A stretch of DNA of 64,000 nucleotides from Escherichia coli (lineage in GTDB: Bacteria; Pseudomonadota; Gammaproteobacteria; Enterobacterales; Enterobacteriaceae): NCBI RefSeq assembly GCF_044324785.1, contig NZ_CP172127.1; one strand, written 5' to 3'. A model generated the notes under the pieces. The model ran no database searches, was not told where the DNA came from, and saw only the letters and a list, made by a program, of their open reading frames with translations. Positions 14,668 to 21,025 of this stretch are shown here, piece after piece (the first letter of the stretch is position 1; the number at the start of each line of letters is the position of its first letter). The position numbers and the translations under genes are program-made.

Positions 14668-15786
14668 CTACCAGGCCGGGATCATAACCAACAAAACGTA
14701 TCCCACCAGCGCCGCCCACAACAGCATCGGTATTGAATAGAGATGGAAACGCCACCAGATACGGCGATCGTTCGCCATCCGTAACGCAATCAAATTTGCC
14801 AGCGATCCGGGTAATAAACCAAAGCCACCTACGTTAACCGCCCATGCCAGCAGCAACGACGGCGGCACATAATTGAGCAGCAAAATGGTACTCGGCACGT
14901 TACTGATCACCTGCGATAAACCGATTGCCGTTAACCATAACCCGGGTTCAGATAAATGACTCACGTTACCCAACACACCTTGCAACGCTGGAAGCTGGGT
15001 CAGTAAATGGACGTCGATAAACATCGCCATAAACACCAGCAGCAGCGTCCAGTCCACACTCAACACCACGCGACGTGCCAGCAGCGCAAAGCCCGCCGCC
15101 ACAATCACCAGTCCCCACAGCTCTTGTTTTAACTCCAGCGCCGTCAGAAAGACGATATACAGCCCCAGACAACTCCACACCAGCCGCGGTTTCCACTCCG
15201 GAGTTTGCACCCCCGTATGGTATTGGAGTGCCTTTCCAGGGAAACAACACCAGCACAGGAGCAGGAGCGTCAGCATCATTGCGCCAGCCAGTGGTGCCAT
15301 TTGGGCAATAAATCCGGCAAACGAAAGACCAGAACGTCCCCAGATAAGAATATTTTGCGGGTTGCCAATTGGCGTCAGTAGCGAACCAGCGTTGACTGCC
15401 AGCGCCTCAAAAATAATCAGCCGATTAACCGGGATCTCACACAGTCTTTTGAGCGTGATAGTCAGCGGAACAACTATAAACAGCGCGACATCGTTGGTCA
15501 GAAAGGTAGAAAGCAGCGCCGCCGCCAGCACCATAAACATCGCCAGCCGACGCTCCGTAGCAAAGCGGCGCACCATTTTGCGCCCCAGCACATCAAAATA
15601 ACCGCTTAGCTCCACACCTTTAGTCAGCAGCATCAGGCCGCTTAAGGTGATGATGGTGTGCCAGTCGATAGCAGCAGGCCAGGATTTCGGTGCAAAGGGA
15701 ACAAAAAAACTTAATCCGATGCCAACAAGAATTAATAACTGAAAAAAACGATCGCCTTGCAGCGTGCGTAAAAAAGGCAGGCTCAT
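14668..15786 (-). CDS. ybiR: inner membrane transporter YbiR (anion permease family)
   Basis: 372 aa polytopic membrane protein recognised as YbiR. Confidence 0.9.
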
Positions 15787-16250
15787 TTGGCACCGTGTTT
15801 CTGGGTAAACAAACGAAAGGCATCCAGCGTCTCTTCACTAACATGGTGCTCCATGCCTTCCGCGTCGCGACGGGCGATTTCCGGACTGACGCCCAACACC
15901 AACAAGAAATTTTCGACTATCTGATGTCGCTCGCGGCTTTCCTGCGCCAGTTTCTCTCCTTCTGCCGTTAAAAACACGCCACGCCAGGGGATCATTTCAA
16001 TCAGCCCCATGGTTGCCAGCCGCTTAAGCATTTTCGCCACCGTCGGTTGCGAAACCCCCAGACGAGCAGCCATGTCCACCTGACGAGCTTCCCCCACTTC
16101 CCTGATCAAGTCAGAAATCAGCTCAACGTAATCATCAATAAGCTCGCGCCGATGCGCCTCTCTGACCTGGCGGAACCCTTCAACGTGCTCTTCCACGTTC
16201 ACTAACTGCGTCACTTTTTTTGCTGTTGGCGTACCTGCGCGACGACTCAT
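15783..16250 (-). CDS. mntR: manganese-responsive transcriptional regulator MntR
   Basis: 155 aa DtxR-family sequence recognised as MntR; 4-bp overlap with ybiR. Confidence 0.9.
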
Positions 16251-16351
16251 TGTGCTTCCTCATTATGGTGACGCATACCTAGCGTTCTCATTTCGTGCGC
16301 ACATTGTAAACCAGAGTTGCGAAGGTACAAAAAATTAACGTTTTAGCAATA

Positions 16352-16380
16352 GCTATATAATATAGCCTGTGCTATATCTG
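16352..16380. promoter_or_regulatory. candidate MntR operator in the mntS promoter region
   Basis: Near-palindrome gctatataatatagc plus adjacent gctatatctg upstream of mntS; resembles MntR box half-sites (TAGC/GCTAT). Confidence 0.4.
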
Positions 16381-16435
16381 TATGTAATGCAATCATCCCT
16401 CAAGGATCGACGGGATTAGCAAGTCAGGAGGTCTT

Positions 16436-16564
16436 ATGAATGAGTTCAAGAGGTGTATGCGCGTGTTTAGTCATTCTCCCTTTAAAGTACGGTTAATGCT
16501 GCTCTCTATGTTGTGCGATATGGTCAACAACAAACCGCAGCAAGATAAACCTTCCGATAAATAG
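16436..16564 (+). CDS. mntS: small protein MntS (42 aa)
   Basis: Translation MNEFKRCMRVFSHSPFKVRLMLLSMLCDMVNNKPQQDKPSDK read by hand; absent from the ORF track (<60 aa); SD-like AGGAGG upstream. Confidence 0.8.
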   Translation: MNEFKRCMRVFSHSPFKVRLMLLSMLCDMVNNKPQQDKPSDK

Positions 16565-16835
16565 CGGCGTCGCGGTACGCCGCTTCACTCCTGCTTTTAT
16601 GCAGGCACAACGCGTTTTGGTCTGAAAAACCCCACTTTTTGTCGGATTTGCAATCCCCTTCGCAAAAGATTTGTTCGTCAGTAGTTGACCTGAACGGCGG
16701 CTCGCTCTATCTTCTTGCAGCCCTGCGTATATTGCGGCTCGCGGATGCGGACCCCTTTCCCCTCTTCACGCACTCTTGCAGGTATTGACCCTTGACGCCA
16801 GGGTAAGCACATGGCGTTTGTTACGATAGTGGCAT

Positions 16836-18419
16836 ATGAATTTAACCCTCAAAGAATCGCTTGTTACCCGTAGCCGGGTATTTAGCCCGTGGACTGCGTT
16901 CTACTTTTTACAGTCGCTATTAATTAACCTCGGCTTAGGTTATCCCTTCAGTTTGCTCTACACCGCTGCGTTTACGGCTATTTTGCTTTTGCTATGGCGA
17001 ACATTGCCTCGCGTACAAAAAGTTCTGGTCGGTGTCAGTTCGCTGGTGGCGGCTTGTTATTTCCCTTTTGCTCAGGCCTACGGCGCGCCTAATTTCAATA
17101 CATTGCTGGCATTGCACTCCACCAATATGGAAGAGTCGACCGAAATCCTGACGATTTTTCCGTGGTACAGCTACCTGGTCGGCTTATTTATTTTTGCGCT
17201 CGGCGTAATAGCAATCAGGCGAAAAAAAGAGAATGAAAAAGCGCGCTGGAATACCTTCGACAGCCTGTGTCTGGTATTCAGTGTGGCGACATTTTTTGTT
17301 GCTCCCGTGCAAAACCTGGCCTGGGGCGGCGTATTTAAACTGAAAGATACTGGCTATCCGGTATTTCGTTTTGCTAAGGATGTCATCGTCAATAATAACG
17401 AGGTGATTGAAGAGCAAGAACGGATGGCAAAACTGTCCGGAATGAAAGATACCTGGACGGTCACTGCCGTTAAGCCGAAATATCAGACTTATGTGGTGGT
17501 GATCGGTGAAAGCGCGCGTCGCGATGCCCTCGGTGCCTTTGGCGGTCACTGGGACAATACCCCGTTTGCCAGCAGCGTTAACGGTTTGATATTTGCTGAC
17601 TACATTGCCGCCAGTGGCTCCACGCAGAAATCGCTTGGCTTAACGCTCAATCGCGTAGTCGATGGCAAACCACAGTTTCAGGATAACTTTGTCACCCTGG
17701 CAAATCGCGCGGGCTTCCAGACCTGGTGGTTTTCCAACCAGGGCCAAATCGGCGAATACGATACCGCCATCGCCAGCATCGCCAAACGTGCAGATGAAGT
17801 GTACTTCCTGAAAGAAGGTAATTTTGAAGCAGATAAAAACACGAAAGACGAAGCGTTACTGGATATGACCGCTCAAGTGCTGGCACAAGAGCACTCGCAA
17901 CCGCGGCTGATTGTTCTACATCTGATGGGCTCACATCCGCAGGCCTGCGACCGGACACAAGGCAAATACGAAACCTTTGTGCAATCGAAAGAAACGTCGT
18001 GCTATCTCTATACCATGACGCAAACGGACGATTTACTGCGCAAGCTGTACGATCAGTTACGCAACAGCGGCAGCAGCTTCTCGCTGGTTTACTTTTCTGA
18101 CCACGGTCTGGCTTTTAAAGAGCGCGGCAAAGACGTGCAATACCTTGCCCATGATGATAAGTATCAGCAAAATTTCCAGGTGCCTTTTATGGTCATTTCG
18201 AGCGACGATAAAGCGCATCGGGTGATTAAAGCCCGCCGCTCAGCCAATGACTTCTTAGGTTTTTTCTCCCAGTGGACGGGAATTAAAGCGAAGGAAATTA
18301 ACATCAAATACCCGTTTATATCTGAGAAGAAAGCCGGGCCGATATACATCACCAACTTCCAGTTACAGAAGGTAGATTACAACCATCTCGGAACCGATAT
18401 TTTCGACCCGAAACCTTAA
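16836..18419 (+). CDS. opgE: phosphoethanolamine transferase OpgE (YbiP)
   Basis: 527 aa; N-terminal membrane domain plus sulfatase-like domain. Confidence 0.9.
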   Translation: MNLTLKESLVTRSRVFSPWTAFYFLQSLLINLGLGYPFSLLYTAAFTAILLLLWRTLPRVQKVLVGVSSLVAACYFPFAQAYGAPNFNTLLALHSTNMEESTEILTIFPWYSYLVGLFIFALGVIAIRRKKENEKARWNTFDSLCLVFSVATFFVAPVQNLAWGGVFKLKDTGYPVFRFAKDVIVNNNEVIEEQERMAKLSGMKDTWTVTAVKPKYQTYVVVIGESARRDALGAFGGHWDNTPFASSVNGLIFADYIAASGSTQKSLGLTLNRVVDGKPQFQDNFVTLANRAGFQTWWFSNQGQIGEYDTAIASIAKRADEVYFLKEGNFEADKNTKDEALLDMTAQVLAQEHSQPRLIVLHLMGSHPQACDRTQGKYETFVQSKETSCYLYTMTQTDDLLRKLYDQLRNSGSSFSLVYFSDHGLAFKERGKDVQYLAHDDKYQQNFQVPFMVISSDDKAHRVIKARRSANDFLGFFSQWTGIKAKEINIKYPFISEKKAGPIYITNFQLQKVDYNHLGTDIFDPKP

Positions 18420-18983: not shown

Positions 18984-19335
18984 AACCACCTCAAATGTGA
19001 TTCAAATAAGTCCTAAGTTTTAAATATATCAAAAATTAATGGGAAACTCTTCGCGATTTGTGATGTCTAACGGGCCATTTCATGTAACAGAACGTTTCCA
19101 TACACCGCTATCCATCTAAATTTAAATCACTTTTTCAGAGAACTGCGTAAGTATTACGCATGTTTTCCCTGTCATTCATCCAGATTATTCCTAATCACCA
19201 GACTAATGATTCCATCAATCCTGGCGCATTTTAGTCAAAACGGGGGAAAATTTTTTCAACAAATGCTCAACCAGCATTGGGTATATCCAGTACACTCCAC
19301 GCTTTACTTAAGTCTAGATATTTGTGGGAGAAAGG

Positions 19336-20377: not shown

Positions 20378-21025
<648 letters not shown>

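Follow-up and report, generated by a model that had tools for sequence, protein, structure and literature searches.

A 42-codon gene between mntR and opgE of Escherichia coli, almost certainly mntS, and the paired MntR boxes at its promoter

Some proteins of fewer than 50 amino acids, for example MgtS, AcrZ and KdpF, bind a larger membrane transporter and change its activity; these proteins are unrelated in sequence to MntS. MntS raises total cellular manganese, and loss of the protein MntP mimics MntS overproduction (PMC4361602). It needs MntP to cause manganese sensitivity, it binds MntP in two-hybrid assays and inhibits it, and it self-associates when manganese is present (Wright et al., bioRxiv 10.1101/2023.06.02.543501). 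The same study found that MntS is less hydrophobic than a typical membrane peptide, and reported homology and functional substitution between MntS and the SitA signal peptides of Rahnella and Sodalis, which are 40-45 aa long and linked to MntR. MntS differs from SitA in being a stand-alone ORF in which the AXA cleavage motif and the mature SitA domain were lost, and it was probably derived from a SitA signal peptide (Wright et al., bioRxiv 10.1101/2023.06.02.543501).

This body of work bears on an early hypothesis in which MntS acts as a chaperone handing manganese over to enzymes, an idea that survived in the 'manganese chaperone-like' label which the original prediction for this locus gave to the protein. 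The hypothesis goes with the observation that mntS-null mutants are defective in manganese-dependent enzyme activity at low manganese (PMC4361602). However, purified MntS does not help MnSOD metallation in vitro, and mutants in the candidate metal ligands (Glu, Cys, Asp, His) stay active (Martin et al. 2015, PMC4361602). The increase in total manganese, the equivalence between MntP loss and MntS overproduction, the requirement of MntP for MntS toxicity and the two-hybrid binding of the two proteins also speak against a chaperone. The idea was tested and found no support, which makes the label outdated, and we regard a chaperone role as exceedingly improbable.

The control of mntS by manganese has been described as well. 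MntR with manganese represses the gene (PMC4361602), and without mntR a PmntS-egfp fusion does not respond to manganese (PMC9806134). At mntS the promoter is overlapped by two 18-bp MntR sites, paired at exactly the spacing found in the B. subtilis operators of mneP and mneS; this common 18-bp site spacing suggests that the dimers bind cooperatively (PMC11275975). The outcome is not the same in the two species, since the bound array activates mneP whereas it represses mntS. The mntP operator also has two sites, but these lie 40 bp apart and far upstream, and they are activating, whereas the mntS pair abuts with a 1-bp gap. The gene dps is a further MntR target according to Yamamoto et al. 2011, as this work is quoted in the papers that cite it. 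The gene mntS, its regulation by MntR and the action of its product on MntP have all been published already, and practically every E. coli genome in RefSeq carries an annotation of the gene.

We analysed a stretch of E. coli DNA of 64,000 nucleotides (hereafter the window, to which all coordinates refer unless another sequence is named). The genes of the locus and the ribosome-binding site are the following:

15783 to 16250, minus strand: mntR, the divergent manganese-sensing regulator that acts on the boxes (155-aa ORF, NCBIfam, annotation)
16426 to 16431, plus strand: Shine-Dalgarno sequence AGGAGG, 4 nt 5' of the mntS ATG
16436 to 16564, plus strand: mntS coding sequence, 42 aa and stop (ORF, annotation, NCBIfam, K-12 identity, purifying selection)
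16836 to 18419, plus strand: opgE, encoding the phosphoethanolamine transferase OpgE of 527 aa, right neighbour of mntS

The locus is almost certainly E. coli mntS, also known as the RybA RNA, together with its MntR-controlled promoter. The original prediction, made from the letters alone, had described a 42-aa ORF with a good Shine-Dalgarno-like sequence between mntR and opgE and had named it mntS. The ORF is where it was said to be: its 129 nt run on the plus strand from the ATG at 16436 to the TAG at 16562-16564 and encode MNEFKRCMRVFSHSPFKVRLMLLSMLCDMVNNKPQQDKPSDK. The name is borne out by the NCBIfam profile NF033226 'small_MntS' (an equivalog), which covers residues 1-39 of 42 and scores 96 bits (E = 6e-28) where 36 would suffice as the cutoff, and by identity of the whole 42-aa product to K-12 b4705 (YP_009029995.1). 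It is also the name used by RefSeq: the 701 bases from 16200 to 16900 are 100% identical to several E. coli chromosomes, which annotate the ORF as "mntS: manganase accumulation protein MntS" (WP_001001761.1). No Pfam family was matched by MntS. The product of the neighbouring mntR matches NF008273 (MntR equivalog) with 269 bits against a cutoff of 153.

Comparison with K-12 revealed nothing different in the protein, in its position between mntR and opgE, in the Shine-Dalgarno sequence, in the promoter or in the operators. Four of the 701 bases differ between the window and MG1655, none of them in the ORF, promoter or operator. More broadly, the mntS region (16200-16900) has a match in 5421 of 5426 complete E. 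coli genomes, and the segment with promoter, ORF and hairpin (16330-16600) is present at a coverage of at least 80% in all 5421. The gene is absent from the ORF track because it is shorter than the 60-aa threshold. This had been suspected, and no ORF of at least 60 aa is listed that overlaps 16260-16830.

To see the locus in relatives we used 80 mntR-anchored loci from about 20 enterobacterial genera, among them Escherichia, Citrobacter, Salmonella, Enterobacter, Klebsiella, Raoultella, Kluyvera, Kosakonia, Leclercia, Lelliottia and Franconibacter. These were retrieved through MntR and not through MntS, so that a loss of the ORF would be visible. Such a loss in close relatives had been named in advance as the observation that would speak against the gene. 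We found the reverse: MntS adjoins mntR in 77 of the 80 loci (tblastn), and all 77 ORFs are intact, with lengths of 41-44 aa. As for the three loci without MntS, two have no upstream DNA on the contig and the third, from Citrobacter sp. R56, has foreign DNA in the promoter.

The pattern of substitutions is that of a coding sequence. In the first 33 ungapped codons of 74 distinct DNA sequences, the numbers of variable columns at codon positions 1, 2 and 3 are 16, 10 and 30 of 33. The median pairwise dN/dS against the window sequence is 0.09; in the two alternative frames of the same DNA it rises to 1.23 and 3.18. The invariant residues include M1, N2, E3, R6, C7, V10, F11, H13, S14, P15, F16, V18, R19, L20, L22 and K33. 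Upstream of the start codon, CAGGAGG is nearly invariant among 73 distinct orthologous upstream sequences. Judged by these substitutions, the mntS ORF is under purifying selection and is no chance ORF.

The gene lies within a longer transcription unit, for which we considered these features:

16369 to 16708, plus strand: RybA/mntS transcript, K-12 b4416, 340 nt, mapped from K-12 rybA 852725-853064
16396 to 16414, plus strand: small, weakly supported hairpin of the 5' UTR, specified by hand
16563 to 16584, plus strand: terminator-type hairpin AGCGGCGT-CGCGGT-ACGCCGCT, which starts within the mntS stop codon

In K-12, mntS is inside rybA, and the RybA 5' end corresponds to G16369, 67 nt 5' of the mntS ATG. 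A common 5' end has been described for seven RNA species that range from 205 to about 400 nt (PMC4361602). One could then suppose that the locus acts mainly as a non-coding sRNA, RybA, and that the 42-codon ORF is incidental. K-12 is indeed annotated with a 340-nt ncRNA, rybA, over the region, and Gerstle et al. 2012, as cited in PMC4361602, reported that RybA regulates aromatic amino acid biosynthesis genes in peroxide stress; PMC4361602 itself leaves room for an RNA role in other contexts. However, the coding signature given above holds across about 20 genera, with its low dN/dS and its excess of third-position variation, and synonymous sites diverge freely (pS up to 0.8), which shows that the coding part evolves without strong RNA-level constraint. 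At the level of the RNA, a search of Rfam with 15500-17500 at E <= 1 returned no match, neither a RybA family nor a riboswitch, the fold of the 232-nt RNA is no more stable than that of shuffled sequence (z = -0.67), and the RNA 3' of the hairpin (16563-16584) lacks conservation in genera other than Escherichia. The experimental evidence points the same way. RybA b4416 is the same transcript, and its manganese phenotype is due to the encoded protein: frameshift alleles abolish the phenotype and Hfq is dispensable (PMC4361602). We consider it very unlikely that the locus works mainly through its RNA, while a secondary RNA function of RybA is possible.

RNAalifold on 20 5' UTRs returned only a trivial 4-bp helix and did not predict the hairpin at 16396-16414. 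When this hairpin is imposed on the alignment, pairing holds in 81% of cells, whereas slid controls give 42-62%; three of the six pairs change on both sides. The hairpin at 16563-16584 has a GC-rich stem of 8 bp, and its sequence is conserved across genera. In most genera the tail that follows is TTCATTTTT, as in a normal intrinsic terminator, while in E. coli and E. albertii it is TTCACTCCTG (Escherichia tail TTCACTCCTGC; E. coli tail TTCACTCC). The E. coli hairpin has no adjacent T-run, and the terminator scan did not call a terminator at this place. The decayed T-run of E. coli and E. albertii may explain the read-through isoforms of RybA, and it is in keeping with the 340 nt annotated in K-12. 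If the 205-nt RNA starts at 16369, its end falls near 16573, within the hairpin, and the match between published size and hairpin position is only approximate.

Further downstream, a promoter-like site on the plus strand (TTGACC, 17-nt spacer, TATCTT; 16685-16713) lies in a conserved patch 5' of opgE and is probably the opgE promoter. The annotated 3' end of K-12 RybA (16708) falls inside it.

Upstream of the transcript, the promoter region has the following elements:

16341 to 16358, no strand assigned: MntR box 1, TTTTAGC-AATA-GCTATAT, one mismatch to the ATAGC-N4-GCTAT core, -28 to -11
16352 to 16366, no strand assigned: palindrome GCTATATAATATAGC, where the two boxes abut, with box 1 giving its right half, a single base pair in between, and box 2 giving its left half
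16356 to 16361, plus strand: putative -10 hexamer TATAAT, -13 to -8 relative to 16369, placed from the sequence and the annotated 5' end
16360 to 16377, no strand assigned: MntR box 2, ATATAGC-CTGT-GCTATAT, perfect inverted repeat, -9 to +9
16378 to 16388, no strand assigned: near-invariant block CTGTATGTAAT, +10 to +20 of the transcript, just 3' of box 2

The reference MntR sites with which we compared the boxes were read directly from sequence, at mntH and mntP of K-12 and at dps. The K-12 mntH site, AAACATAGCAAAGGCTATGTTT, written as halves AAACATAGC-AAAG-GCTATGTTT (ACATAGC-AAAG-GCTATGT), is a perfect ATAGC-N4-GCTAT. The two K-12 mntP sites are GAATTTAGC-CAAA-GCTATGTTT (TTTAGC-CAAA-GCTATGT; site 1) and AGACATAGC-TTAG-GCTATATTA (ACATAGC-TTAG-GCTATAT; site 2). 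From the mntH and mntP sites, the MntR recognition unit is therefore ATAGC-N4-GCTAT. The operators of mntH, mntP and dps share this unit with mntS, and the boxes of mntS and dps overlap a -10 hexamer. Box 2 of mntS has no mismatch to an 18-bp inverted repeat with this core, and box 1 resembles the mntP site GAATTTAGCCAAAGCTATGTTT. The two boxes, 19 bp apart from centre to centre, extend from -28 to +9 when counted from the annotated RybA 5' end (16369) and include TATAAT. The primary paper on the mntS operator and on the 5' end of the RNA is reportedly that of Waters et al. 2011.

The exact motif ATAGC-N4-GCTAT is rare in the 64-kb window. It has two matches, one at mntS (16362-16375, the core of box 2) and one at dps, where 0.04 are expected, and none of 100 shuffles reached two.

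The dps copy occupies 20459-20472 within ACATAGC-CGGT-GCTATAC (20457-20474). This box, which lies 48-65 nt 5' of the start codon of dps (20522) and shares bases with a TATACT hexamer, fits the published repression of dps by MntR.

Among 73 distinct upstream sequences, drawn from about 20 genera, the operator pair is well conserved. Bases of box 2 vary rarely or never, and the sole common change in this box, T16361C in 8 sequences, yields the mntH-type half-site ACATAGC. In box 1, TAGC and GCTATA are conserved. Positions T1, A2, A5 and T6 of the TATAAT hexamer are kept across genera (TAnnAT), while positions 3 and 4 vary. We found no good -35 hexamer for the mntS promoter, and the promoter scan did not call a promoter there.

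The original prediction had assigned MntR repression to a 15-bp near-palindrome upstream of the gene. The palindrome at 16352-16366 is real, and it is perfect rather than near (GCTATAT-A-ATATAGC, 7+1+7). It is built of MntR half-site sequence and sits over the -10 hexamer, as one would expect if it were itself an MntR binding site. However, its halves are in the polarity GCTAT..ATAGC with a 1-bp spacer, and the resulting GCTAT-N5-ATAGC reverses both the polarity and the spacing of every documented E. coli MntR site that we examined (mntH, two at mntP, and dps). An arrangement of the palindrome type was not seen at these other MntR targets. Conservation also argues against the palindrome as a unit. 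Its symmetry requires position 16358, and no base of the region varies more than this one (A 27, T 23, C 18 and G 5 of 73), whereas the partners that complete boxes 1 and 2 are conserved. Finally, the literature places two 18-bp sites at mntS (PMC11275975). We give almost no credence to the palindrome as a binding site; judged from polarity, spacing and conservation, it is a by-product of two adjacent MntR boxes and no site itself. The prediction of MntR operator DNA at the promoter stands, while the 15-bp palindrome has to be given up as its unit. A visible palindrome can arise from two neighbouring operators rather than from a binding site.

One other candidate operator was discarded: the best match to the Fur box consensus at the mntS promoter is 9/19, and 145 sites in the window reach at least 12/19.

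We propose a scheme for two adjacent boxes that takes MntR binding and repression, MntS translation and MntP inhibition from the literature, and gene identity, conservation, purifying selection and the operator architecture with its position relative to the 5' end from this analysis. When manganese is scarce, metal-free MntR would leave the mntS promoter free, and RNA polymerase would start at G16369 by means of TATAAT (16356-16361). The short mRNA would be translated from AGGAGG and the ATG at 16436 into the 42-aa MntS, and its synthesis would end at the hairpin 16563-16584, which would be leaky in Escherichia and give the longer RNA species. MntS then binds the MntP exporter and inhibits export, as described in the literature, and cytoplasmic manganese rises. 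When manganese is plentiful, Mn-MntR dimers would occupy 16341-16358 and 16360-16377, presumably in a cooperative manner, and transcription would be turned off. Bound in this way, MntR would sit on the promoter spacer, on the -10 hexamer and on the start site, a classical arrangement that suggests repression by occlusion.

The DNA of the palindrome turned up in another context. E. coli 1919D3 has a 28.9-kb prophage of the P2 family between mntR and mntS (locus L088, 10112-39204), with P2-type capsid, ogr/Delta, CI repressor and integrase genes; the integrase gene adjoins mntS. The closest integrase in a phage collection is 76% identical. The prophage is flanked by direct repeats of TATAATATAGC (16356-16366 in the window), and allowing one mismatch lengthens the repeat to GCT[A/T]TATAATATAGC, the palindrome 16352-16366. 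Strain PSJ-16 has a decayed remnant of 3.9 kb at the same junction, the left junction is identical in nine genomes, and the region is split into two places in about 33 of 5421 E. coli genomes. In Citrobacter sp. R56, a different insert is found at the same point, after 16366. From the sequence of the junctions, a few E. coli genomes have a P2-family prophage for which the palindrome 16352-16366 is the attB crossover core. Our literature searches for a prophage attachment site at mntS/mntR found no paper naming one, and an operator doubling as a phage attachment site is the only possibly new point of this locus.

Integration leaves different elements on the two sides of the prophage. On the side of mntS, the -10 hexamer, the start site and box 2 are kept, and the phage arm puts a look-alike of box 1, AGATAGTTGATGCTTTAT (AGATAGT-TGAT-GCTTTAT), exactly at the position of the former box 1. 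On the side of mntR, box 1 is kept and the right half of box 2 is lost. Lysogeny could in this way rewire the manganese control of both mntS and mntR.

The conservation of the promoter region extends beyond what two MntR boxes and the promoter model account for, as they leave the block CTGTATGTAAT unexplained. Nine of its 11 bases are invariant in 73 sequences from about 20 genera, with 16383 varying in 3 of them and 16384 in 7. A third MntR box at 16379-16396, which would have the 19-bp spacing, was rejected for this block, its half-sites matching poorly by eye. A promoter-like site on the minus strand overlaps the region: the TGTAAT of the block reads ATTACA on that strand (possible -35, 16388-16383), and an 18-nt spacer separates it from a possible -10, TATATT (16364-16359), inside the operator. 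It is one of three returned by the scan and would be the sole plausible candidate for an mntR promoter within conserved DNA. If there is such a divergent mntR promoter, it might explain part of the conservation of 16378-16388. Another of the minus-strand candidates, ATGAGA/CATAAT (16291-16262), is unlikely to be the mntR promoter, as no part of the spacer is less conserved than the one that holds it and as transcription would start about 5 nt before the mntR ATG.

The mntR-mntS spacer has two conserved islands, the A-rich ACAAAAAATTAACG (16326-16340) and CATTGTAAACCA (16302-16313), and the DNA between the two is poorly conserved. The A-rich island may act from an UP-like or weak -35 position of the mntS promoter.

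The operator pair could also serve a divergent mntR promoter, with negative autoregulation of MntR as the outcome, and/or be the place where a prophage rewires manganese control. We hold this extension to be rather unlikely. In the literature on mntR autoregulation, we found no paper that states autoregulation through these boxes.

The locus adds little new biology. It is a useful positive control for the reading of sequence. An ORF filter at 60 aa loses known genes, here MntS with its 42 aa and YliM with 21 aa, and reading the raw sequence recovered mntS. The gene for YliM (METFCYMKWPVRHHKSRRVSH) is annotated at 19036-19101 on the minus strand, between ompX and rhtA, and was hidden by the same 60-aa threshold.
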